DNA of 64,000 bases, taken from positions 5,825 through 69,824 of IMG/VR virus record IMGVR_UViG_3300009149_000025, one strand, 5' to 3'. This document shows, piece after piece, positions 3,439-59,439 of the stretch. The stretch's first letter is position 1; each line of letters starts with the position of its first letter. Below the pieces are notes generated by a model, which worked only from the letters and a program-made list of their open reading frames with translations, was not told the origin of the DNA and searched no databases. The position numbers and the translations under genes are program-made. The DNA is from a virus.

Positions 3439-3942
3439 ATGAAAAATTTTAAAGAATTCATGAACGAAAGTAATATAGACAAAGATACATTAGTTATTTC
3501 TGGATTTCCAGGTATAGGTAAGTCACATTTCTATAGAAAGAATGAAAAAGAAGGTAAAATTGTATTAGATTCTGATTCTAGTAAATTTAGTTGGATAAAA
3601 GATGAAAATGGTAATAACACTAAGGAAAGAGATCCAAATTTTCCTAATAATTATATTAAACACATAAAAGAAAATATAGGAAAAGCTGATATAATTTTAG
3701 TATCATCACATAAAATTGTTAGAGATGTTCTTGTAGAAAACAATATAACATTCACACTTGTTTATCCATCAAGAGAAATAAAAGAAGAATATTTACAACG
3801 ATATAAAGATAGAGGTAGTGATGGTCCTTTTGTGGAATTGTTAAATAATAATTGGGATAATTTTTTAGATGAATTAGAAGAACAAAAAGGTTGTGATAAA
3901 ATAGAATTAGAAGAAGGTAAATATCTTAGTGATTATTTATAA
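3439..3942 (+). CDS. P-loop NTPase / kinase
   Basis: Walker A GFPGIGKS; LDSDSS; leader MKNFKEFMNE. Confidence 0.7.
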   Translation: MKNFKEFMNESNIDKDTLVISGFPGIGKSHFYRKNEKEGKIVLDSDSSKFSWIKDENGNNTKERDPNFPNNYIKHIKENIGKADIILVSSHKIVRDVLVENNITFTLVYPSREIKEEYLQRYKDRGSDGPFVELLNNNWDNFLDELEEQKGCDKIELEEGKYLSDYL

Positions 3943-3974
3943 ACTCATTATTATATATTTATATATAAGTAGTT

Positions 3975-5492
3975 ATGATTATAGATAATAAATGTAAGAT
4001 TAAAATCACGAATAGGAATAAAAAATATTTTAAATCTAAAGGATATTTATGTGATAATGAATACGAAAATGTAAATCCAAATGATTTGAGTAATGGGAGT
4101 AATATTAAAATTACGGTTAAATGTGATTATTGTGATAATATAAAAAATATTTCTGTAAAAAATTATAATTCTGTAAAAAGTAAAAATAATGATGAATATT
4201 ATTGTTCTAAATGTTGGAATAAACGATTAAAAAAAATAATGATAGATAAATATGGAGTAGATATTCCATTAAGAAATAAAAAAATACAAGAAAAACAGAA
4301 AAATACATTATATAATAATTATGGTGTTTATCATCCATCTGAAAGTAAATTATTGAAAGGTAATTTAAAAAATATATTAATTGATAAATATGGTGTAGAT
4401 AATGTGTCAAAAATTGATACTGTTAAAATAAAAAAAATAAAATCCTTAAAAAAATCTTCTTTATTTAGATTAAAATCTAAATATAATGAAATAATAGATT
4501 TTGATTACGATACAAAGATATTGAAATGTGTATGTATTAATCATAATTATAATATATCATATGATTTATTTTACAATAGAAAGGAATTAAATACTGTAAT
4601 ATGTACAATATGTAATCCTATTAATAAAAATATATCTGGTTTAGAAATCCAATTACAAGATTTTATTAAAGACAATTACACTAATATTATATTAAATGAT
4701 AGACATTTAGGTAAAGAACTTGACATTTATGTTCCTGATTTAAAACTTGCATTTGAATTTAATGGTTTATATTGGCACAATGAAATTAATAAAGAAAATA
4801 ATTATCATTTAAATAAAACTGAATTATGTGAAGAACAAGGAATTCAATTGATTCATATTTATGAAGATGATTGGTTATATAAACAAGATATTGTTAAATC
4901 TGTGATATTAAATAAATTAGGTAAATCTGTAAATAAGATATATGCCAGAAAAACAGAAATCAGAGAAATAACTGATAATAAAATAGTTAGAGAATTTTTA
5001 AATAAAAACCATCTTCAAGGATTTATTGGTGGTAAAGTAAAATTAGGTTTATATTATGATAATAAATTGACTAGTTTAATGACATTCGGAAAAAGAAGGG
5101 TTGTAATGGGTAAAAAGGGTTCAGAAGAAGGAGAATATGAGTTATTAAGATTTTGTTCCAAACTAAATACAAATGTAGTTGGCGGTGCAAATAAATTATT
5201 TAAACATTTTGTTAGGAATTTTCAACCAAAAGAAATAACAACATATGCTGATATGTCATGGAGTAATGGTAATTTATATGAACAATTAGGGTTTGAATAT
5301 CAGGGCAAAACAAAACCTAATTATTATTATATAATTGATGGAATTAGACATTATAGATTCAACTACAGAAAAGATAAATTAATGAAAGAAGGATATTCTA
5401 AAGAAAAAACTGAAAAACAAATAATGTTAGATAGAGGAATTTATAGAATATATGATTCTGGTAATCTAAAATTTATATATAATATAATATGA
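3975..5492 (+). CDS. Hef-like homing endonuclease with zinc-finger repeats and C-terminal GNAT-like domain
   Basis: CDYC, CSKC and CTIC pairs; KYGVD repeats; ELDIYVPDLKLAFEFNGLYWH nuclease motif; ELLRFC...GGANKLF...TYAD C-terminal domain. Confidence 0.75.
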   Translation: MIIDNKCKIKITNRNKKYFKSKGYLCDNEYENVNPNDLSNGSNIKITVKCDYCDNIKNISVKNYNSVKSKNNDEYYCSKCWNKRLKKIMIDKYGVDIPLRNKKIQEKQKNTLYNNYGVYHPSESKLLKGNLKNILIDKYGVDNVSKIDTVKIKKIKSLKKSSLFRLKSKYNEIIDFDYDTKILKCVCINHNYNISYDLFYNRKELNTVICTICNPINKNISGLEIQLQDFIKDNYTNIILNDRHLGKELDIYVPDLKLAFEFNGLYWHNEINKENNYHLNKTELCEEQGIQLIHIYEDDWLYKQDIVKSVILNKLGKSVNKIYARKTEIREITDNKIVREFLNKNHLQGFIGGKVKLGLYYDNKLTSLMTFGKRRVVMGKKGSEEGEYELLRFCSKLNTNVVGGANKLFKHFVRNFQPKEITTYADMSWSNGNLYEQLGFEYQGKTKPNYYYIIDGIRHYRFNYRKDKLMKEGYSKEKTEKQIMLDRGIYRIYDSGNLKFIYNII

Positions 5493-7729: not shown

Positions 7730-8983
7730 TTAAACGACATACCAATCATCACATATATACCAGGGATAAAATTTTATTATTTTCATTATTTTTACACCTT
7801 GTTTATCTTTATCAATCATTGATACTGTATGATCATATTTCCAAGTAGATGTTAATTTTCCTTCTGTATATATTCCATCATTATTTTCATTGAATGTTCT
7901 ACGGTATGTTTTATTTTTACATCTCACAATATCACCAACTTTAATTTCATTTGGTTGTTCTTCTTCGAAGTCAAAATCTTCATCATTAAAGTCAAAACTC
8001 TCTATAATTATATCATCAACACAATCAAATGGTATAAACCAATCATTATCATCAAAGTCGAATGATTCATTAATTATTTTATATAAATCAAATTTTTGTA
8101 CATACCACCCATGTCCATATGGACAACCATATCCAGTTGCGTGATTCATTTCCCTATCATTCATTATACTATCTGGTAAATTTTTATCAAAATTTACATA
8201 TATATTCCAACTACTACGGATATTTAAAATTGTTCCTTTACCATATTTTTTATGAAATACTCTTTCTCCAACTTTGAATTTAGTCCCATAAGGTGGTTTA
8301 ATAATCTTTGGTTTTTTAAATTCTTCTTCATCCCAATCAAAGTCATCATCATCAAAATCAAATTGTTCATTAAATTTTATTATTCCATTTTCTTTTAGTG
8401 GAACATATTTATCAACTTTTCTTTTATATAATTTACCATCATATTTCATGAATTTATATTTCCCATCAAGATTATAAACGATATAATAACTATCAGGTTT
8501 CAATTCCGAAAAATATTTCATATTTTTAAATTGGTTTTCATATGCTAAATTTATAAAATCAATATCAACATTTCTTTCTCTTTTTTTATTTTGTTTTAAA
8601 GATAAATCTTTAGTGCCCATTAGATGAATGAATAAAATAGTATAATTATGTTCTTTTGATAAATTTGTAATATTGGTAATATTATCTTTTTGTGTTCCTG
8701 TTGTATCATATATGAATGATTTTCCATATTCTATAAATAGTTTCAATCTTCTAACATTTAATTCTGATGTACCTTCTTTATATCTATTAGGATCTTTTGT
8801 AAATACTAATGAAACATCATCAGTTGAAAATATTTTAATATTTTGATTTTTATTTAAAATATAGTTTTTAGCGAATGTTGATTTACCAATACCAGGTGCC
8901 CCCAATAAAATTATACCTAATTTATCATTTCTTGTTATTTCAGGTATGGGATCATTTTTTGAATGTTCATATATTTGATGCAT
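7730..8983 (-). CDS. AAA_33/zeta-like P-loop kinase fused to small domains separated by acidic linkers
   Basis: GAPGIGKSTF, YDTTG; three internal (N/I)E(Q/S)FDF-acidic linkers. Confidence 0.7.
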   Translation of the reverse strand: MHQIYEHSKNDPIPEITRNDKLGIILLGAPGIGKSTFAKNYILNKNQNIKIFSTDDVSLVFTKDPNRYKEGTSELNVRRLKLFIEYGKSFIYDTTGTQKDNITNITNLSKEHNYTILFIHLMGTKDLSLKQNKKRERNVDIDFINLAYENQFKNMKYFSELKPDSYYIVYNLDGKYKFMKYDGKLYKRKVDKYVPLKENGIIKFNEQFDFDDDDFDWDEEEFKKPKIIKPPYGTKFKVGERVFHKKYGKGTILNIRSSWNIYVNFDKNLPDSIMNDREMNHATGYGCPYGHGWYVQKFDLYKIINESFDFDDNDWFIPFDCVDDIIIESFDFNDEDFDFEEEQPNEIKVGDIVRCKNKTYRRTFNENNDGIYTEGKLTSTWKYDHTVSMIDKDKQGVKIMKIIKFYPWYICDDWYVV

Positions 8984-8998
8984 TTTAATTGTTTAATT

Positions 8999-30026: not shown

Positions 30027-30115
30027 ATAAAACCAATTTTGAAAATTACTATATAATAATTGACGTATTAAATTTGACTTTTGAGGGTATAAGATGCCCT
30101 TAAAAAAAAATTTTT

Positions 30116-31030
30116 ATGAAGAAAGTAAATTACAGAACGAATTACATTGAACCTCAGGATTTTAACGATACAATATCGAAATTAAGAGGTTTTTTTATGC
30201 AAAAAGGATTTATTGAAACATTCCCACAACCTAAGTTAACAATCCTAGCAGCATGTGAAGATCCAAAAACAGTGAAGACATTTAATTTTGATAATAATGT
30301 TTGGCCTTTACCACAAACTAACCAAATGAATTTAGAAGAAGAATTAATGGTTTCTAAAGATGTAGATGGGTTATTTTGTATGACGGCATCATATAGAGAT
30401 GAACCAAATCCAGTAGAAGGAAGACATATGAAAACATTCCCAATGTTTGAAGCAGAACACAAGGGGGATTTTGAACATTTAATAAAAACAATTAGTGAAT
30501 GTTGTGTTTATTTGGAATTAGTGGATAGTGTAGAAGATATACCAATTTTTACTTATGATGAATTATGTGAACATTACAAAACAGATGAATTAACATCAGA
30601 ACACGAAACTAAAATGTGGGAAGAATATGGTAATGTTGTTGCTATAACATATTTTCCAGAAAGAACAAGTCCATTTTTCAATATGAAACAAGGTGGGTAT
30701 AATAAACAAGGTGAAAAGATTTCTAAAAAAGTGGATTTTATAGTATGTGGTCAAGAAACTTTTGGTTGTGCTGAAAGGGAATGTGATGTAGATGTCATGA
30801 GAGAAAATTTCCACACAATTAGTGATGGTGAGTATTCTGGACTATTATATGATAAATTTGGAAAAGAAAGAGTATCTGAAGAACTTGAACAATTTCTTAA
30901 ATTACCTATGATAGATAGATGGGGATTTGGTATGGGAATTACTAGGTTGGTTAGAGCTCTTAAAATAGTTAAAGAACAAAAAAAGGTGAAATCGGCTCAC
31001 GAAATATTCTTTAGTCAAGAACATGTGTAA
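30116..31030 (+). CDS. class II aaRS catalytic-domain protein (AsnRS/AspRS-like, no anticodon-binding domain)
   Basis: Motif 2 SYRDEP...RH...FPMFEAE; GQETFG; motif 3 GFGMGITRL; 304 aa. Confidence 0.85.
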   Translation: MKKVNYRTNYIEPQDFNDTISKLRGFFMQKGFIETFPQPKLTILAACEDPKTVKTFNFDNNVWPLPQTNQMNLEEELMVSKDVDGLFCMTASYRDEPNPVEGRHMKTFPMFEAEHKGDFEHLIKTISECCVYLELVDSVEDIPIFTYDELCEHYKTDELTSEHETKMWEEYGNVVAITYFPERTSPFFNMKQGGYNKQGEKISKKVDFIVCGQETFGCAERECDVDVMRENFHTISDGEYSGLLYDKFGKERVSEELEQFLKLPMIDRWGFGMGITRLVRALKIVKEQKKVKSAHEIFFSQEHV

Positions 31031-45662: not shown

Positions 45663-45783
45663 ATGAATTGTTAATTTGCTTATATATAAAAATTTACTTC
45701 TGTATTTTTTATTTTATATATAAGAATAGTATTATTTTCTATCGGTGTTAAAATAATATATAAAATAAAAATATAACCATTTT

Positions 45784-48105
45784 ATGGATTTATGGAATGT
45801 AAAATTTGATTGGGAATTTAATAGTGGAGTAACAGTATTTCCTAGTCAGATAATTATGACTTATGGAGTTTGGGAAAAAGTTAATAGATTAAATGAATAT
45901 GTTAATGATAATACTATAGATAATTTAGATGAAGTTTATTTTAAATTTCAAAAGTGTATATCAGGATTGACATATCAATATGTATTAGATCTATATGATA
46001 TATATGAAAGAAATATAATGGTTGGTGATGTGGAATATACTGAATTGTTTTATAATGAATATGATGTTATAAATGAATATATGGGTAATTTCAATTATGT
46101 TGATTTTTATATAGATGAACAAATTGATATAAACCAAAGAATAACTAAAATTGATGGACATTATTTAAAATCAGCACATAAAATATTAGTTGCTGGACAA
46201 ACAGGTAAAACTGAAAATGGTATTTATTCATTTGACGTAGATGGATATTTACAGAAAACTACAGATTTAGATACAACAGGTAATACATATAGATATGGGT
46301 GTCATGTAAAAATGGATAATAGTAATAACATAGAATTCTTTTTACAAAATAGTGGTAATACATTTCCAATAACAGATGAAGAAATGGATTTTATGACAGG
46401 GCACACTTATATATTGAAGAATGGGTTTGAATATAATATAAATAATACGGGAACAACATATGATAGTATACCAAAATTGTGGTTTACAGATTATAATTTT
46501 GCTAGAAAATTAAATAAATTAAATTATAGTTTATATAATACAATAGAAGTACCGACAATACCAACAACTACTTTTTCAATACAATATAGAAATAACCCAC
46601 CAGTTGTTTTTGATGTATCTCTTGGAAATTCTCAGACATATGGAGGAGATTTTGAATATTCCATATATTCTGGTAAAACTATTTTAACATTATTAGATAC
46701 AGTATCTTCTACATTTTGTAAACCAGGTGATTATTTATATATCGATACAAGGTCCAATATTACATCTACTGATAATATTGCATTATTTAATACAATAGTA
46801 GATAGTTTCGATGGTACTAATATTATATTGAATGAATATGTTCCAAATTATGTTCTATCTGGTGATACATCACAGACTTTGGTTATTGATAATCTTAATA
46901 ATATTAGACCGAGTCTTGGAGATATCAATTTGATATATTTAAATGGTCATTATTATAGTGAGTTTTTTACATTTAGTGGAGAAACTCTTGATCAATGGTC
47001 TGGAACAGTGAATTTAAAAATCATTCCAAAGGAAAATGAATATAGTAAATATATTGATTATGACGCATTTACTTTTACATTCGATTCAACTGATTATACG
47101 TTCACATCAGATAACCATTACATAGATTATAAGTTATATGAACATTTGAGTGGTATTACTAGTGATGTATTTAATAGTTCATTTGATTTGGGTTCAGGGT
47201 ATACTATGAGTGAATTTTCATCACAATATACATATTTGATAGATGATACATCTTATCCCCAACAGATAGTAGAACAAGACAGTCCAATAAAAATAACACC
47301 AGCATCAGAAGGTAGTTTAGATAATTTCTATAAATATACAAGTGTTTATATTAATGAAAATTATGATGATAAAGTTTTTGTTTTAGATAAGGATAATACA
47401 TCAATAACAATTGAAAAACCATTTTCTATATCAGTAAAAGGCGACATAACGGGGATTACTTCATTTTATTCATTAACAGGTATTTCTGAAACGTTGTATG
47501 ATGTTTATTTAAATACAGGTGTAACATATTACACTAAAGATGATGAATTTAGAGCAAGAATTTATAGGACTTATAATGAATTATTATCAGTAGATAGTAG
47601 AATAAAAGAATATACAACAGGTACAATTACCGCAAATGATAAAAATAATTATATTCTTAAACTTTATAATTATAGAAATGGATATATTACCGATTTAACT
47701 GGTAATACAATAGGTGATGTTTATTATGAAAATGATAATAACCTATTATTTAAACCATTAGAAATAGTTGATATTGGTATTGATAAACAATCAAAAATGC
47801 CTCTTTTAATTTATAATGACGATTTACGAATATCAGATACTATATCCAGTGGTCATACTGTAAGTATAATTAAAGATTCAGTTGAAAGTAATATTACATT
47901 GATTGATGGGATGACTATTGAAAAATTAAAAGTTAAGTATATTTGGATTTTTAATGCAATAATTGAAGATGCCTTAATTGGTGAAGATGAATATGGTTTG
48001 GTATGGTATAAAGGAACATGGGTATGTGGAGATTGGACAGATGGTACATGGTATTCGGGGACTTGGTTAAATGGGACATGGAAAAATGGTAAATGGTTAA
48101 GTTGA
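45784..48105 (+). CDS. large virion structural protein, N-terminal part
   Basis: IDGHYLKSAHKILVAGQT...ENGIY (tail/decoration-type motif); Trp-Gly pentapeptide repeats start at the C-end; TGA followed in frame by 48106..48975. Confidence 0.65.
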   Translation: MDLWNVKFDWEFNSGVTVFPSQIIMTYGVWEKVNRLNEYVNDNTIDNLDEVYFKFQKCISGLTYQYVLDLYDIYERNIMVGDVEYTELFYNEYDVINEYMGNFNYVDFYIDEQIDINQRITKIDGHYLKSAHKILVAGQTGKTENGIYSFDVDGYLQKTTDLDTTGNTYRYGCHVKMDNSNNIEFFLQNSGNTFPITDEEMDFMTGHTYILKNGFEYNINNTGTTYDSIPKLWFTDYNFARKLNKLNYSLYNTIEVPTIPTTTFSIQYRNNPPVVFDVSLGNSQTYGGDFEYSIYSGKTILTLLDTVSSTFCKPGDYLYIDTRSNITSTDNIALFNTIVDSFDGTNIILNEYVPNYVLSGDTSQTLVIDNLNNIRPSLGDINLIYLNGHYYSEFFTFSGETLDQWSGTVNLKIIPKENEYSKYIDYDAFTFTFDSTDYTFTSDNHYIDYKLYEHLSGITSDVFNSSFDLGSGYTMSEFSSQYTYLIDDTSYPQQIVEQDSPIKITPASEGSLDNFYKYTSVYINENYDDKVFVLDKDNTSITIEKPFSISVKGDITGITSFYSLTGISETLYDVYLNTGVTYYTKDDEFRARIYRTYNELLSVDSRIKEYTTGTITANDKNNYILKLYNYRNGYITDLTGNTIGDVYYENDNNLLFKPLEIVDIGIDKQSKMPLLIYNDDLRISDTISSGHTVSIIKDSVESNITLIDGMTIEKLKVKYIWIFNAIIEDALIGEDEYGLVWYKGTWVCGDWTDGTWYSGTWLNGTWKNGKWLS

Positions 48106-48975
48106 TTGATAGATGAATTTAAATTCTTATCAACTGGTGTACTAAAAAAATTGGATGATAATAAAAAATATTCTATATTTGTAAATGGAACATGGAGAAA
48201 TGGTTTATGGTATAATGGCATATTCGGTGACGAAATTTCTATAAGTGGATATACATCCGAAGCGTTCTTAAACCATACTGATGTTTTACCCAATTTAAAT
48301 GTTGCGACATGGAAGAATGGTAATTTTTATGATGGGGTATTTAAAAATTCCATATGGGAAAATGGTAATTTTATAAGTGGTAAAATGTATGGGGGTTATT
48401 GGAAAAATGGTGTATTTAATAATGGAACATTTGATGGAAATTGGTGGAATGGATCATTTAGTAATTCAGATTTTGTTAGTGGGGTATGGGAAAATGGTGT
48501 ATTTTCATATTCGAGACTTGGATACAACACTGGAACCACATCTGCAACAACTACAGAATGGTGGAATGGTAATATGAATTTATCTGAAGTTTATTCTGGT
48601 ACATATGAACCAACTAACTACAATAGAACCCATTGGTATAGTGGTGTATTTAGAAGTAGTAAATGGTATGGTGGGCATTTTTTTACTGGAAATTTCATAG
48701 ATAGTACGTTTTACGATGGTGTATTTGGAACTAATGATACAGATGTATTAAGTGATAAGAGATATAGTGGTATAACATTTACTAGTGGTGATTTTATAAA
48801 TGGATTATGGGTAAATGGGATATTTGTGGATGGTAATTTTAGAAATGGTGTATGGTTGAATGGGGTATTTATAGATGGAAATTTAAGAACATTAAATCCA
48901 AATATTACTCAGGGTAAAAATGTACCAACCCTATATGTTGGAAACAAAAATATTAAAAATCGTAAAATATTATAA
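48106..48975 (+). CDS. in-frame continuation: W/F-x-x-G-x pentapeptide-repeat (beta-solenoid) region
   Basis: Same frame as 45784; only a TTG start directly after the TGA; repeats continue. Confidence 0.6.
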   Translation: MIDEFKFLSTGVLKKLDDNKKYSIFVNGTWRNGLWYNGIFGDEISISGYTSEAFLNHTDVLPNLNVATWKNGNFYDGVFKNSIWENGNFISGKMYGGYWKNGVFNNGTFDGNWWNGSFSNSDFVSGVWENGVFSYSRLGYNTGTTSATTTEWWNGNMNLSEVYSGTYEPTNYNRTHWYSGVFRSSKWYGGHFFTGNFIDSTFYDGVFGTNDTDVLSDKRYSGITFTSGDFINGLWVNGIFVDGNFRNGVWLNGVFIDGNLRTLNPNITQGKNVPTLYVGNKNIKNRKIL

Positions 48976-52437: not shown

Positions 52438-53541
52438 ATGAAGGCGGTAATTGGATTAGGATTCGGTGATGAAGGTAAAGGTTTAGTTACTAATTATTTA
52501 GAAGGATCATTGGTGATTAGATATTCAGGTGGACAACAAGCTGGACACAATGTTGTTTTGAAAGATGGTAAAAGCCATATCTTTTCAAACTTCGGTTCAG
52601 GTACTTTGAAAGGTATACCAACATATTGGTCAAAATTTTGTACAGTTGATCCAGTTGGTATGATGAATGAACTAAATGATTTATTGGAAAATGGGTTCAA
52701 TCCCGTTTTGTATATCGATGGTGATTCTCCAATTACCACTCCATATGATAAGTATCACAATAGTAATAATGTAGCTGATTTAAATCATGGTACATGTGGT
52801 GTCGGTGTCGGTTCTACATTTAATAGAGAAGAACATTTTTACCATTTAACATTCAGTGATATCTTTAATTCGTGGATATTAGATACTAAATTAAATAATA
52901 TTGCTAAATATTATGGATATTTGTCTCATGAATTAATAGAACAAGTTGAAGAATTTTTAATTATGTGTGATGAAATGGTCAAAAGTGGAAATTTTCATTT
53001 AGTTTATGGTATTCCAGATGGTTTTGATGAAGATGGATATGTTTTTGAAGGTTCACAAGGGTTGTTATTAGACCAACACTATGGATTTTTCCCACATGTT
53101 ACAAGATGTAATGTAGGAACAACAAATATTTTAGAAATGGTTACTGATAAATCTTTCGAATTATTCTTGGTGACAAGAGCTTATCAAACAAGACATGGTA
53201 ATGGTCCAATGACTAATGATAATATAGATTTTGATGTAAATAACCCAAATGAAACAAATGTAGATAATGAATATCAAGGTAAATTTAGAAAATCAATTCT
53301 TGATGTATCATTGTTAGAATATGGTATAAATAAAGATAAGTATATTAGAGAAAATCCTAAAAATTTAGTAATTACTTGTCTGGATCAAGTTGATGAATAT
53401 ACATTTACATATGATGGGTTGATGGTTTTATGTGATGATGAAGATGAATTTGTTAAAAGAATTTCAGATATTCTAAATATAGATAGTGTGTATATAAGTA
53501 AATCAAACGTTAGTGAAAATATAAAAAAATGGAATAAATAA
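52438..53541 (+). CDS. purA: adenylosuccinate synthetase-like protein
   Basis: GLGFGDEGKG, QAGHNV, HGTCGVGVG, FEGSQGLLLD, FPHVT, TRHGNGP. Confidence 0.8.
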   Translation: MKAVIGLGFGDEGKGLVTNYLEGSLVIRYSGGQQAGHNVVLKDGKSHIFSNFGSGTLKGIPTYWSKFCTVDPVGMMNELNDLLENGFNPVLYIDGDSPITTPYDKYHNSNNVADLNHGTCGVGVGSTFNREEHFYHLTFSDIFNSWILDTKLNNIAKYYGYLSHELIEQVEEFLIMCDEMVKSGNFHLVYGIPDGFDEDGYVFEGSQGLLLDQHYGFFPHVTRCNVGTTNILEMVTDKSFELFLVTRAYQTRHGNGPMTNDNIDFDVNNPNETNVDNEYQGKFRKSILDVSLLEYGINKDKYIRENPKNLVITCLDQVDEYTFTYDGLMVLCDDEDEFVKRISDILNIDSVYISKSNVSENIKKWNK

Positions 53542-53572
53542 AAAAAGGGAGACTAAATTGTCTCCCCTTTTT
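53540..53572. terminator. bidirectional intrinsic terminator
   Basis: A-run GGGAGAC-TAAATT-GTCTCCC T-run. Confidence 0.8.
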
Positions 53573-53575
53573 CTT

Positions 53576-53770
53576 TTATTTCTTCAAACTTTTCGTGATT
53601 TCTACAGAAGCTTTTCTGTATGGTGTGACTAGTTTTTTAATTTCACCAAGAGCAACTCTAACGTCAGCTTCAGCAGATTTATTGCCTTTTTCAATGAATT
53701 TTTCATGTCTAGCTTTGACTATTTCAAATTGTTCTAAAATTGCATCGTAAATTGATTCTAATTCTTTCAT
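53576..53770 (-). CDS. histone H1-like (Hc1) protein
   Basis: KFIEKGNKSAEADVRVALGEIKKLVTPYRKASVE resembles the GNKAAGxRARK...RKxS pattern. Confidence 0.65.
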   Translation of the reverse strand: MKELESIYDAILEQFEIVKARHEKFIEKGNKSAEADVRVALGEIKKLVTPYRKASVEITKSLKK

Positions 53771-53891
53771 ATATTTTTGTTTAATTTTTTGTATCCCTTA
53801 CTTCATAAAGGATTTATGGGTATATATTCAAATGTGACGGTTCAAAAATAATATATAAACAAAAAAGTAATATTTATATAAGAATTTATAT

Positions 53892-53899
53892 TATCTTTG
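53892..53899 (+). promoter_or_regulatory. Bacteroidota-type -7 promoter element
   Basis: TATCTTTG upstream of the leader ORF at 53919. Confidence 0.6.
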
Positions 53900-53918
53900 T
53901 AAAAAATAAATACAAAAA

Positions 53919-53967
53919 ATGAAGAAGAAAGGATATGGTCTATAAGTAAAAAATAAAACTTATAGAC
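53919..53967 (+). promoter_or_regulatory. leader ORF (MKKKGYGL*) overlapping a 10-bp hairpin that abuts the next start codon
   Basis: uORF 53919-53945; GTCTATAAGT (53938-53947) pairs perfectly with ACTTATAGAC (53958-53967); ATG at 53968. Confidence 0.7.
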
Positions 53968-54270
53968 ATGAAAAAAATAGAACAATACGGTTGGACAAAC
54001 AATCGTTCAGTTTACAACAAACTTCGTAAATATCATTTACAAGGAGTTGGGAAAATCCGTTGTGCTTGGTGTGGTTACAACAAAAACGAAAATAGTAACA
54101 AACACTGGTATGGTGGATTTGAAGAAGATTCCGTAAAATATCCTAGTTGGAAAATTGTTTCTAAAAATAGAAAACAATGGATGGATAAACCAAAAGGATA
54201 TAAAGTAACAAAAAAAGTAATTAAAAGAAGTTGGAGAGATCCATATACCTTATATGAAGTTATTTGGTAA
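53968..54270 (+). CDS. basic Trp-rich hypothetical protein with CxxC
   Basis: KIRCAWCGY, WYGG, YPSWKIVSKNRKQW. Confidence 0.7.
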   Translation: MKKIEQYGWTNNRSVYNKLRKYHLQGVGKIRCAWCGYNKNENSNKHWYGGFEEDSVKYPSWKIVSKNRKQWMDKPKGYKVTKKVIKRSWRDPYTLYEVIW

Positions 54271-54300
54271 AAAATTAACTAATAAAAAAATAAAACAGTC

Positions 54301-54978
54301 ATGAAAACAGTACTAATAGAAATTAGGGACATGGAAGGTGGTGATGATGCTAAGCTTTTAGTCCAAGAAATGAAAAATATTTATCTAAAATCAATAAGAA
54401 TAAATGATTTTAGAATTACATCTATGGATGAAAAATATGGTTAGTTAACCATTGAAGTCTGTGGTGATAATGTAAAAAAATTCTTCTCAAAAGAAATAGG
54501 TGGACACAGATTTCAAAGAGTTCCACCAACCGAATCAAAAGGTAGAGTACACACTTCTACAATTTCCGTATCAGTTTTAGATAGTAAGTCAGAAGTATCT
54601 GATAATCTAAATATGGATGATATTAATGTTTTTTATACAAAAGGAACAGGACCTGGTGGACAACATAAGAATAAAACACAATCATGTGTTAATATGGTAC
54701 ATATACCTACAGGTATAAAGGTAATGGTAGATGGGAGAAATCAACACCACAATTACGATGGAGCTTTAAAAGAATTAAAAAAAAGATTGAAAGATAAGAA
54801 TCAATCGGATTATGATAAAGGATATTTTGATGAAAAAAGAAATTAAATCGGTATTCAAAATAGAAGTAATCGTAGAAGAACTTACAATTTTAGAAATGGA
54901 ATAGTAACAGATCATTTAACTAATAAGAGTACAACAGTGAAGAATGTATTAAAAGGAAAAATTGATTTATTACATTAA
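54301..54978 (+). CDS. prfA: RF1-like class I release factor lacking domain 1, with in-frame TAG (54442-54444) and TAA (54844-54846)
   Basis: One reading frame: IEIRDMEGGDDAKLL, GHRFQRVPPTESKGRVHTS (PxT), GPGGQHKNKT, HIPTG, NRSNRRRTYNF, VTDH, VLKGKID. Confidence 0.85.
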
Positions 54979-55235: not shown

Positions 55236-55854
55236 TCATAAAGAATATCAGAAAAATTATTATGAAAATAATAAAGAAGAATTGAATAAGAAATCAAAAG
55301 AATGGGGATTAAAAAATAAAGAAAAGGTTAAAGAATATCGGAAAGAATATAATTTAAAAAATAACAATGTAAATAAAGAAAGAAGCAAAAAATGGGCATT
55401 AGATAACAAAGATAAATCAAAAGAATGGGTATTAAAAAATAAAGAGAAGATTAAAAAATATAAAAAAGAATATAGATTAAAAAATAAAGAAAAAATAAAA
55501 GAAGATTATAAAAAATGGCGTTTAGAAAACAAACAATGTAGAATTCGTAGATTAATTGGTAATTCTTTTAAAAATTGTGGGTATAAGAAAAACACAAAAA
55601 CTGAAAAAATATTAGGTTGTACATTTGAACAATTTAAAACACATATTGAAAACCAATTTGAAAATTGGATGTCGTTTGACAATCATGGTAAATATAATGG
55701 AGAATACTTCTTTGGGTGGGATATAGATCATATAGTTGAATTAAAAAGTGCTAAGACAGAAGAAGATATATTGATATTAAATCATTATTCAAATTTAAGA
55801 CCATTGGATAGTAAAATCAATAGAGTTGATAGAAACAAAAAAAGAGAAAGTTAA
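55228..55854 (+). CDS. HNH-type homing endonuclease with basic helical repeats
   Basis: KNKEKIKEY-type repeats; ILGCTFEQFKTHIE, WDIDHI, NHYSNLRPL...N. Confidence 0.8.
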   Translation: MYNHKEYQKNYYENNKEELNKKSKEWGLKNKEKVKEYRKEYNLKNNNVNKERSKKWALDNKDKSKEWVLKNKEKIKKYKKEYRLKNKEKIKEDYKKWRLENKQCRIRRLIGNSFKNCGYKKNTKTEKILGCTFEQFKTHIENQFENWMSFDNHGKYNGEYFFGWDIDHIVELKSAKTEEDILILNHYSNLRPLDSKINRVDRNKKRES

Positions 55855-55870
55855 TAACCTTCTCTTTTTT
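55838..55870. terminator. probable bidirectional terminator
   Basis: AAAAAAGAGAAAGTT-AAT-AACCTTCTCTTTTTT between convergent genes. Confidence 0.6.
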
Positions 55871-55888: not shown

Positions 55889-56086
55889 TTATATGATTTC
55901 TACATTTGTAGCAATTTTGCCTTTTTTACCATCTGTTAGTTCAAAACTAACTTCATCATTTTCTTTGATTGTGTCTACTAAACCTGTGACATGCACAAAG
56001 TACTCATCTTCTGTTTCAGATTCTTTAATAAATCCAAATCCTTTTGCATCGTTAAAAAATTTTACGATACCTTTTAATTCACTCAT
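55889..56086 (-). CDS. cspA: cold-shock protein
   Basis: GIVKFFNDAKGFGFI (RNP1), YFVH (RNP2). Confidence 0.95.
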   Translation of the reverse strand: MSELKGIVKFFNDAKGFGFIKESETEDEYFVHVTGLVDTIKENDEVSFELTDGKKGKIATNVEII

Positions 56087-57997: not shown

Positions 57998-58023
57998 TAA
58001 AAAATTAGTAAAGAATAGAAATT

Positions 58024-59439
58024 ATGTTAGAAATAAAAGGAAAATATACAGACGCACTAATCACAATTGATGATATCGAAGAATCATGTTTACGTCAAGT
58101 TTACGCTATGGCTAATCATGTTGCTTTTGATGGTAAAATTGTTATGATGCCAGATTGCCATGCTGGAAAATCAGCTCCAGTTGGATTTTCAATGCCTTTG
58201 GGTGAAAAGGTTCTACCCAACTCGATCTCTGTGGATATTGGATGTGGAGTCTTATCTGTTAATGTAGGTGATCAAATATCATTAAACAAAGATAAATTAT
58301 TGAAAATCGATGGATATATAAGGGATGTTGTTCCAATGGGAAATAAAATTCATCAAAGAAGTTCAATTCCTTCAAAATATTTTGAGAAGAATTTTCAATT
58401 TGACGAAGTAACAGAAGTTGCTAGAAAATTCATTATGAAATATAATAAGAAATTTAATACAAATTTCGATTATGTTAGATATTCATATGAATGGTTTTTA
58501 AATAAACAAAAAGAAATTGGAATGAAGCAAGATGCTGAATTAGCTATTGGTACACTCGGTGGAGGTAATCATTATTGGGAAGTCGGGGTATCAGATAGTT
58601 GTGGTGATGTGTGGATTACTGTTCATTCAGGATCAAGAAATTTTGGAAAAATGATTTGTGAATTTCACCAAAATAACGCTAAAAAAATATTAGACAACAA
58701 AAGAAAAATTTCTTTAACTGAAAAAATTAAAGAAATTAAGGATAAGTTTCCTGGTAGAGATATTCCAGTTGAAATTAAAAAAATAAAAAAGGATTTAGGT
58801 CTGGATTTTGATTTTAATATCAATGGTATGGAGTTTTTAGAAGGACAGGATGCTATTAACTATTTTATGGATATGATTTTTGCACAGAAATATGCGGATT
58901 TCAATAGAACTAGAATGATAGAACTTGTTGTTAATAAATTGAATATTAAAATTTTGGATTCAATTCATTCAATTCACAATTTTATCAATTTCGAAGATAT
59001 GATTATTCGTAAGGGTGCTATTTCTTCATATGTTGGTGAAAGAATGGTTATACCATTAAATATGGCTGATGGTATGTTGATTTGTGAAGGTAAAAGTAAT
59101 CCAGAATGGAATCATTCAAGCCCACACGGTGCAGGTAGAATTATGTCGAGAGGTGAAGCATCTAGAAAAATTGATTTGAAAGATTTTAAGGCTAAAATGA
59201 AGGGTATAGTATCAACAAGTGTTTGTAAAGCGACTCTTGATGAATCCCCTCAATCATATAAGAATAGTGATATGATAGAAGCTGCAATCGAACCAACAGC
59301 TTTGATTTTGGATAGAGTTAAACCTATCTTGAATTTAAAAGATAAAGGTGATTCTATGACTTGGAAAGAAAAGAGAATGAAAATGAAGAAGGAAAGAAAG
59401 AACGATAGAAAGCAAGTCAGAAAAATGAAAGGTTTATAA
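58024..59439 (+). CDS. rtcB: RtcB RNA ligase
   Basis: MPDCH, VDIGCG, GTLGGGNH, VHSGSR, HN, RKGA, HGAGR, DESPQSYK. Confidence 0.95.
   Translation: MLEIKGKYTDALITIDDIEESCLRQVYAMANHVAFDGKIVMMPDCHAGKSAPVGFSMPLGEKVLPNSISVDIGCGVLSVNVGDQISLNKDKLLKIDGYIRDVVPMGNKIHQRSSIPSKYFEKNFQFDEVTEVARKFIMKYNKKFNTNFDYVRYSYEWFLNKQKEIGMKQDAELAIGTLGGGNHYWEVGVSDSCGDVWITVHSGSRNFGKMICEFHQNNAKKILDNKRKISLTEKIKEIKDKFPGRDIPVEIKKIKKDLGLDFDFNINGMEFLEGQDAINYFMDMIFAQKYADFNRTRMIELVVNKLNIKILDSIHSIHNFINFEDMIIRKGAISSYVGERMVIPLNMADGMLICEGKSNPEWNHSSPHGAGRIMSRGEASRKIDLKDFKAKMKGIVSTSVCKATLDESPQSYKNSDMIEAAIEPTALILDRVKPILNLKDKGDSMTWKEKRMKMKKERKNDRKQVRKMKGL

Follow-up and report, generated by a model that had tools for sequence, protein, structure and literature searches.

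The 64-kb window analysed here, which is the whole stretch taken from the 69.8-kb contig of IMG/VR record IMGVR_UViG_3300009149_000025, raises the question of how a ribosome can reach a start codon that is hidden by a hairpin in a genome that has no Shine-Dalgarno sites. At 53968-54270 on the + strand the window carries a gene for a basic protein of 100 amino acids (aa), and the hairpin directly before its ATG at 53968 holds, in its 5′ strand, the stop codon that ends an eight-codon upstream open reading frame (uORF). A preliminary description of this DNA had read the arrangement as an attenuator in which a ribosome delayed at the uORF stop would unmask the next gene, and had proposed that it senses failures of translation termination. 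We show that the uORF and the hairpin recur together upstream of related genes and that their stems covary, and we conclude that the mini-ORF and hairpin are almost certainly a translation control device.

The uORF (ATG AAG AAG AAA GGA TAT GGT CTA TAA, encoding MKKKGYGL) lies at 53919-53945 and runs into a perfect 10-bp stem, the whole hairpin spanning 53938-53967 on the same + strand. The 5′ arm (GTCTATAAGT, 53938-53947) holds the last sense codon and the TAA (53943-53945), a 10-nt A-rich loop follows (AAAAAATAAA, 53948-53957), and the last base of the 3′ arm (ACTTATAGAC, 53958-53967) adjoins the main ATG. Both the sequence and the predicted fold place the uORF, stem, loop and main ATG at the positions given in the preliminary description. 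Folding of the RNA from 53900 to 54000 returned exactly this leader hairpin at −11.5 kcal/mol, compared to a mean of −2.7 kcal/mol (SD 1.84) for shuffled versions of the segment (z = −4.78), and none of 200 shuffles was as stable. The window holds the two-arm pattern a single time, and none of 100 shuffles holds it; with two or fewer mismatches allowed, the 5′-arm sequence is matched 74 times in the window against 85 expected. Because short inverted repeats are frequent in this 26% GC window (227 pairs of at least 9 nt within 40 nt), a single sequence is weak evidence on its own and comparative support is needed. It is the conservation of the hairpin in relatives, with covariation, that identifies it as more than a chance repeat.

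Relatives of the 100-aa protein came from a word-indexed search (8), a metagenome scan (the best 80 of 149 were kept), IMG/VR (46 loci) and three huge-phage records that match the protein; 16 loci lie in bacterial or archaeal genomes, 14 of them in Chitinophagaceae, one in another Bacteroidota genus and one in a Methanobacterium metagenome-assembled genome. The gene start was placed in 125 loci and in the window (locus L051 gave no start), yielding 83 distinct upstream regions. A single hairpin of at least 6 bp, ending no more than 5 nt before the ATG, was found in 81 of the 83. We then applied a strict minimum-free-energy test that required the hairpin, a stop codon with at least two paired bases in its 5′ strand and an in-frame ATG for the uORF, and 68 of the 83 family regions passed. 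As a control, 619 other genes of the same loci were treated identically, of which 203 passed the hairpin test and 27 passed both parts. The mean folding energy was −12.1 kcal/mol for family leaders and −5.8 kcal/mol for the other genes. Under a looser stop criterion, 77 of the 80 hairpin-bearing regions, which come from metagenomic phages, have an ORF of 5-14 codons that begins with ATG and terminates within the 5′ strand, whereas shuffling the 45 nt before the hairpin (200 trials) left such a uORF in a mean of 9.5 and a maximum of 17 regions.

The arrangement is constrained in its dimensions. Among the 68 leaders that pass the strict test, the uORF is exactly eight codons long in 45, its stop lies 1-11 nt inside the 5′ strand, the spacer from this stop to the main ATG measures 14-29 nt, and the gap between stem and main ATG is 0-4 nt in every case. 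The first, second and third bases of the stop codon are paired in 59, 63 and 56 of the 68, so that the placement of the stop within the occluding hairpin, which the preliminary description had noticed in the window, extends to its relatives. The uORF stops are TAA in 57, TAG in 10 and TGA in one, compared to 258 TAA, 84 TGA and 38 TAG among 380 neighbouring genes, indicating that TGA is avoided as a uORF stop. The encoded peptide follows the consensus M-K-[KE]-x-[F/G/L/Y]-x-[VAG]-L, with a hydrophobic residue at position 5 and Leu at position 8 in 36 of 45, the Leu being specified by five different codons. The last residue is variable (L, R, F, S or T), and therefore no fixed arrest motif is apparent; since the last residues sit in the covarying stem, constraint on the peptide and constraint on the RNA are inseparable. 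In six loci the uORF frame is open further upstream and forms the 3′ end of a 66-aa gene that uses the same stop codon in the stem. What stays constant, whether the frame is a mini-ORF or a real gene, would be a ribosome that ends translation inside the stem.

In the window, 140 ORFs of at least 50 aa were tested and only the main gene has the leader; two further matches to the leader test sit in coding sequence and look spurious. Of 1109 other upstream regions in the related loci, 11 pass the strict filter. Six of the 11 stand before genes for other small basic proteins, 62-82 aa long and with ...WKHNRKTQWK or the like at their ends, to which the covariance model described below adds one more leader (L097:2590); two further groups of small basic proteins in these phages are thereby covered. 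Alignment of the 100-aa family, which we call family A, with these other small basic proteins by hhalign gave E 0.017 and a probability of 2.7%, so homology between them is not established. Chitinophagaceae leaders have a uORF of the form MKK-x-[F/L/Y]-DAL with TAG or TAA in the hairpin and an ATG or GTG directly after it; 14 such uORFs ending in DAL occur in 13 loci, another in L137 ends in DGL, and these copies reside in DNA of 34-50% GC.

The stems themselves vary, and they vary in a compensated manner. There are 48 distinct 5′-arm strings among the 68 leaders. When the leaders are anchored on the uORF stop, the base immediately preceding it pairs in 67 of 68 (GC 35, CG 12, TA 9, AT 5, GU 5, UG 1), and the pair just after the stop is CG in 29, GC in 25, TA in 3 and AT in 2, among others. 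Between the window and its closest relative L001, whose protein is 67% identical, two stem pairs have changed on both sides, from T-A to G-C and from A-T to T-A. Alignment with MAFFT followed by RNAalifold did not yield a consensus structure, as neither the length nor the register of the 3′ arms is constant. A covariance model was therefore built from 29 long-hairpin leaders with a structure given by hand, and it returned 73 matches at E ≤ 1 in the 83 sources, 60 of them at the family leader; the window leader was matched weakly (24 bits, E 0.38). In the resulting alignment, which takes in 13 matches outside the family-A leaders, 12 of them unrelated, each of the 12 modelled pairs has changed on both sides somewhere. 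Doubly changed cells numbered 115, compared to 45.4 ± 7.0 in shuffles, and the covariation score was 0.262 against 0.114, with none of 500 shuffles reaching the observed values and every slid register scoring below the actual one. Conservation of the uORF together with stem covariation upstream of homologues had been named in the preliminary description as the way to check its proposal, and on both counts the outcome is clearly positive.

G·U pairs (45) far outnumber A·C mismatches (4), and therefore the structure is one of the sense-strand RNA. In the long-hairpin class the loop is kept as CTCAAATG, CTCTAATG or CTCACATG while the stems covary (L058:3010-3030, L008, L019, L119). This long-hairpin loop also holds an ATG, in a frame that is not conserved. 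The window hairpin belongs to a class with a plain A-rich loop, and no loop motif is common to all classes.

Other identities for the element were considered. A dispersed repeat or a DNA operator was rejected, as the arm is not repeated in the window and the excess of G·U over A·C points to sense-strand RNA. An intrinsic terminator was rejected because no T-run follows the stem; the only terminator-like sites that the scan lists are at 53540-53573 and 55838-55870. No Rfam model covers the leader (window 53500-54400, E ≤ 10), and a search of eight related loci (E ≤ 0.1) returned tRNAs only, plus three sub-threshold matches elsewhere. All weak Rfam matches of the region fall on the site at 53540-53573, where the convergent purA-like and Hc1-like genes are separated by a G+C-rich hairpin that resembles a bidirectional terminator. 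Full-text searches of the literature found no description of such a leader.

We then considered how the leader could work. A Shine-Dalgarno-like 4-mer precedes the start in just 2 of 77 window ORFs of at least 100 aa (background 5.6%), the upstream regions in the same survey are A-rich, and the window genome is without Shine-Dalgarno sites, so what the hairpin hides is the A-rich initiation region itself. In the mechanism that we propose, initiation would need an open A-rich stretch before the ATG, the hairpin would bury exactly that stretch, and the main gene could not be started directly while the hairpin is folded. The uORF would have an open A-rich leader of its own, far enough upstream for a ribosome to load without hairpin contact; in 49 of the 68 leaders pairing begins 16-21 nt after the A of the uORF start codon, a distance at which a ribosome can start on the uORF without touching the hairpin. 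A ribosome reading the eight codons would then unwind the stem, and once the stop reaches the A site the 5′ strand would lie inside the ribosome, with the 3′ strand and the main ATG single-stranded. In all 68 leaders the 5′ strand reaches just 0-7 nt past the uORF stop, and the footprint of a ribosome extends about 12 nt downstream from the codon being decoded (PMC4833913); a ribosome with the stop in its A site would therefore hold the entire 5′ strand. With the 5′ strand covered, the free RNA comprising the 3′ strand and the start region has a median predicted folding energy of −0.65 kcal/mol, versus −12.15 kcal/mol for the full leader, and the corresponding values for the window are 0.0 and −11.3 kcal/mol.

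Two routes to the main start would then be available. The last sense codon of the uORF lies 20-35 nt from the main ATG (28 nt in the window), and two ribosomes need a spacing of about 27 nt. The distance is at least 27 nt in 50 of the 68 leaders, where a second ribosome could load; where the spacer is short, the same ribosome would re-start after release. Output of the main gene would be set by translation of the uORF and by how long the ribosome dwells at its end. We infer that the uORF is translated, that the hairpin represses the main gene and that unmasking activates it, and we consider obligatory uORF-dependent unmasking of the main start, by translational coupling or attenuation, to be the best reading of the leader, with a probability of roughly 0.55. 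The unmasking logic of the preliminary description is sound in this respect, as a ribosome at the uORF stop would hold the 5′ strand and leave the main start unstructured.

Several observations weigh against this conclusion. Two upstream regions, L022 and L075 (4 loci), lack the motif, the uORF stop of L107 precedes the stem, and the uORF frame of L064 (7 loci) is off by one A within an A-run. Here L064 and six identical loci (3919-3979) have seven A where L037 has eight, and the shifted uORF reads past the hairpin to a TAA 8 nt beyond the main ATG; the shift may be a homopolymer assembly error or a slippage site. In 18 of the 68 leaders fewer than 27 nt separate the last sense codon from the main ATG, which is probably too short for two ribosomes at once. 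Re-starting by the same ribosome would be needed in those leaders. No single sub-mechanism fits all members. An ATG is found in 33 of the 68 spacers, mostly in the loop and in inconsistent frames, and such ATGs would intercept a scanning ribosome. By analogy the hairpin could be purely inhibitory, since stable hairpins just past a stop codon cut re-initiation in the E. coli reporters described in parts of PMC7518266. Finally, the structures are minimum-free-energy predictions on related sequences, only 66.7% of the cells in the covariance-model alignment pair, which reflects the differing register of the 3′ arms, and the covariation figures are supportive rather than a probability, given that the alignment was fitted to the model and its sequences are related. 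Two further leaders depart from the pattern: in L113 the uORF stop is at the start of the loop, and L070 is interrupted by the contig end. A relay through a second mini-ORF starting from the loop ATG was tried and rejected, as the frames and stops that follow the 33 spacer ATGs are inconsistent.

The proposed mechanism has precedents. In the cat, cmlA and ermC systems a stem-loop masks the next start and is opened by a ribosome held on the leader ORF, which has nine codons in cmlA (PMC8876359, in the sections on these genes). The family leaders likewise consist of a short ORF followed by a stem-loop over the downstream start, with the gap of 0-4 nt. They differ in that the regulated gene is no resistance determinant (it has no Pfam, NCBIfam or PHROG match), no conserved stalling peptide is apparent and no inducer is known, the single hairpin has no alternative pairing, no Shine-Dalgarno site is hidden since the genome has none, and nearly all members have the leader stop paired within the stem. 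A second precedent is coupling by RNA unfolding, as in phage f1 VII/IX, rpmI-rplT and MS2 coat-lysis, where upstream translation through a structure activates a silenced start, and in f1 the coupling persists while the upstream stop is still within the hairpin (both from portions of PMC12548453). Here too an upstream frame enters the very hairpin that conceals the next start. Unlike the f1 type of coupling, this frame is mostly a dedicated 8-codon mini-ORF, a real 66-aa gene taking its place at six loci, and the arrangement is kept as a unit across the whole protein family.

Short non-functional ORFs placed just upstream, such as integron attI ORF-11 and ORF-17 and the bacterial "leader genes", are described as enhancing the translation of genes whose initiation regions are poor, with re-initiation as the proposed means, and the stop-start distances reported for them peak at 10-14 nt (PMC8876359; PMC4833913, each in the passages concerned). 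The position of the uORF is similar, but those ORFs are without a conserved occluding hairpin that embeds the stop, and the spacing here is 14-29 nt. The ribosome termination structure, a stable hairpin placed downstream of a stop, close to where the terminating ribosome ends, and acting as an insulator, is also tied to a stop codon and governs the fate of the ribosome after termination (PMC7518266, in its account of such structures). In the family leaders, in contrast, the stop is inside the 5′ strand, and because this strand ends 0-7 nt later the hairpin cannot stay folded during termination. TnaC, MsrDL (which arrest at the leader stop) and prfB autoregulation all set expression at a stop codon; those systems need a defined peptide or an in-frame stop in the regulated gene, and no such defined peptide is seen among the uORFs here. 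Bypassing of the T4 gene 60 type, which calls for matched take-off and landing codons around a gap opened by a stop in a stem-loop and for a long nascent-peptide signal, was rejected, since by eye the last sense codon is not repeated after the hairpin in the sequences listed, the nascent chain has eight residues and the 14-29-nt spacers keep no frame relation. The anatomy fits both RNA-unfolding coupling and single-hairpin attenuation (PMC12548453; PMC8876359), and what sets it apart from them is a dedicated mini-ORF that terminates inside the stem with no Shine-Dalgarno site involved.

The product of the main gene is a basic protein with a conserved C..C pair and a WK..SKNRKQWM motif. The preliminary description had labelled it a CxxC protein, and the label is accurate, with the qualification that just two Cys are conserved in the family and that no fold or family was found for it. 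Profile searches of Pfam, PHROG, NCBIfam and PDB sequences gave no match, an AlphaFold2 model reached a predicted local distance difference test (pLDDT) score of 67 and matched nothing in the PDB by Foldseek, and the ESM Atlas yielded nothing usable on function. A hidden Markov model search for the family found 325 cluster representatives at E ≤ 1e-3, all of them small, stand-alone proteins.

We also asked where the family is found. Genes for tRNAs or tmRNA are present in 71 of 82 distinct phage loci. A tRNA starts no more than 100 nt past the stop of the family gene in 52 of the 82, within 18 nt in 40 of these, and carries the anticodon CAT in 37 of the 52. Most of the CAT tRNAs start 2-18 nt past the family-gene stop (e.g., L058:3337-3412, L009:576-647 and L019:4308-4382), and by eye they lack the three anticodon-stem G-C pairs of the initiator, which makes them elongator Met or Ile2 type. 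The closest upstream tRNA within 1 kb is tRNA-Leu(CAA) in 26 of 42 cases, and a T4 Rnl1-type RNA ligase is encoded about 2 kb downstream in 19 loci. No tRNA gene was found in the window, where an RtcB gene lies 3.7 kb from the leader. At L088:3870-3970 the uORF ATG directly follows the 3′ end of a tRNA-Val gene, so that tRNA processing would leave a leaderless uORF, and at L121:3614-3700 two leader-gene units stand in tandem, with the TGA of the first gene overlapping the next uORF ATG. Three loci carry CTA-anticodon tRNAs, which are amber suppressors annotated as tRNA-Pyl by ARAGORN (L018:8063-8138, L031:5959-6031 and L097:65-137), and in such loci the leaders of other small proteins end in TAG. 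A TAG uORF stop could be read through in such phages once the CTA suppressor is made.

In the window, the gene that follows the 100-aa gene by 30 nt (54301-54846, +) encodes an RF1-like release-factor homologue without domain 1. The preliminary description had noticed a release factor directly downstream, and the homologue is of class I, with matches to the PCRF and RF-1 domains and with both PPT and GGQ as motifs. Among NCBIfam models it scores highest against RF1, at 146.8 bits (cut-off 400), ahead of PrfH at 58.6 (cut-off 166.65); it is the lack of domain 1 that keeps the RF1 score below its cut-off. A TAG within the frame, at 54442-54444 (codon 48), aligns with Phe in the relatives of L080 and LR756504, and with what we take to be Tyr in E. 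coli RF1. It could be a nonsense change of a Tyr codon, an error in the sequencing or, in a factor that itself reads UAG, a site of self-limiting readthrough. The RF1-like genes of three huge-phage records contain in-frame TGA codons (L080:4638-5321, L127:2155-2833 and L128:601-1260), in keeping with phages that recode TGA and supply an RF1 of their own. Among the 83 distinct contexts, only two lineages place a release factor after the family gene, namely the window and L080/L102/LR756501, where it comes after a tRNA-Thr and a small zinc-finger gene, and the Chitinophaga copies sit among ordinary, variable chromosomal genes unrelated to translation. The meaning that the preliminary description had drawn from the release-factor neighbour is therefore not upheld.

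The remainder of the window is in keeping with a phage of a Bacteroidota-style host. It encodes a T4-type large terminase, which identifies the contig as phage, and the standard genetic code reads well across the contig; an altered code was rejected because the longest ORFs are the same under TAG- or TGA-coding and most real genes have no internal TAG or TGA. A candidate promoter, TATCTTTG, is found in the sequence at 53892-53899 (+), 19 nt before the uORF ATG, and matches what we take to be the Bacteroidota −7 type TAnnTTTG. In L001 and L002, the closest relatives, TAnnTTTG likewise precedes the uORF, by 32 and 23 nt, in line with the motif proposed at the outset; across leaders it is found in only 4 of 68, and in background windows in 559 of 6170. 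The scarcity of Shine-Dalgarno sites, the A-rich upstream regions and this motif, on the assumption that its type is correct, together point to the host style. Accessory genes with an RNA-repair or translation flavour include the RtcB RNA ligase (58012-59439), a PNK/PSTK-like P-loop kinase (7733-8992, −), a truncated class II aminoacyl-tRNA synthetase-like protein (30104-31027), a cold-shock protein (55889-56086, −), an Hc1 histone-like protein (53576-53770, −) and a purA-like adenylosuccinate synthetase (52438-53541). At 45769-48975, same-frame ORFs of 778 and 290 codons are separated by a single TGA, and neither has a Pfam match.

Obligatory unmasking has to be weighed against other explanations of the same leader. 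It is possible, although we regard it as doubtful, that expression of the main gene begins only if ribosomes are held up at the uORF stop or the last codons, whether from slow release or recycling, a damaged decoding centre, tRNA shortage or a ribosome-targeting toxin or antibiotic, and that basal unmasking is brief. The geometry would tie output to dwell time at the stop, the architecture is that of the single-hairpin translation attenuators described in parts of PMC8876359, and the avoidance of TGA, the recurrence of hydrophobic position 5 and Leu 8 across five Leu codons, and the translation-related contexts (tRNA or tmRNA genes, the RF1-like gene in two lineages, RtcB in the window) all agree with such a role. 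The last uORF residues, however, are not fixed and lie within the covarying stem, a release-factor neighbour is rare, and the Chitinophaga contexts are unrelated to translation. The specific claim of the preliminary description, that the leader senses failure of termination, is compatible with the geometry, but specific sensing of termination failure is not supported. An autogenous operator, in which the basic protein would silence its own translation by binding the hairpin of its leader, while the uORF provides a basal opening that the protein counteracts, appears unlikely to us. The product is small and basic, the long-hairpin loops are conserved over covarying stems and every group of small basic proteins has its own hairpin; against these points, the window class has a plain A-rich loop with no motif shared across classes, no RNA-binding fold or family was detected in the searches of the protein, and the placement of the stop in the stem would be left unexplained.

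A purely repressive leader, in which the uORF captures ribosomes and the hairpin blocks initiation and re-initiation so that a possibly harmful protein is kept at a trace level, seems somewhat less probable again. It would agree with the strength of the hairpins (median −12 kcal/mol) and with the E. coli reporters in passages of PMC7518266, where structures right after stops insulate against re-initiation. For repression the hairpin alone would suffice, which leaves the near-universal uORF unexplained, and with the stop inside the stem a terminating ribosome must have melted it. We consider it very improbable that the hairpin is a processing or stability element of tRNA-array transcripts, marking or protecting the mRNA end after tRNA excision. 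The gene does stand between tRNA genes in most phage loci, with the uORF ATG of L088 abutting a tRNA, but the window has no tRNA gene, most Chitinophaga copies keep the leader with no tRNA nearby, and neither the uORF frame nor the stop placement would be accounted for.

Under obligatory unmasking, the leader is a natural and widely conserved case of leader-ORF control in organisms that initiate without Shine-Dalgarno pairing, and the proteins encoded behind it form an uncharacterised family, 325 sequence clusters in size, that travels with phage tRNA, tmRNA and release-factor genes. Because the family is present in cultivable Chitinophaga, it can be tested at the bench. Very tentatively, and with the odds well against it, the leader may be a kinetic sensor of ribosome dwell at the end of the 8-codon frame that switches on small basic proteins acting on the translation apparatus in Shine-Dalgarno-less Bacteroidota and their phages, with phages carrying the family in tRNA/tmRNA arrays or beside a truncated RF1 as a countermeasure against attacks on translation. 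If the element does report dwell at the stop, it would be a simple indicator, made by nature, of the state of termination or of the ribosome, and would point the way to a new translation-associated factor.

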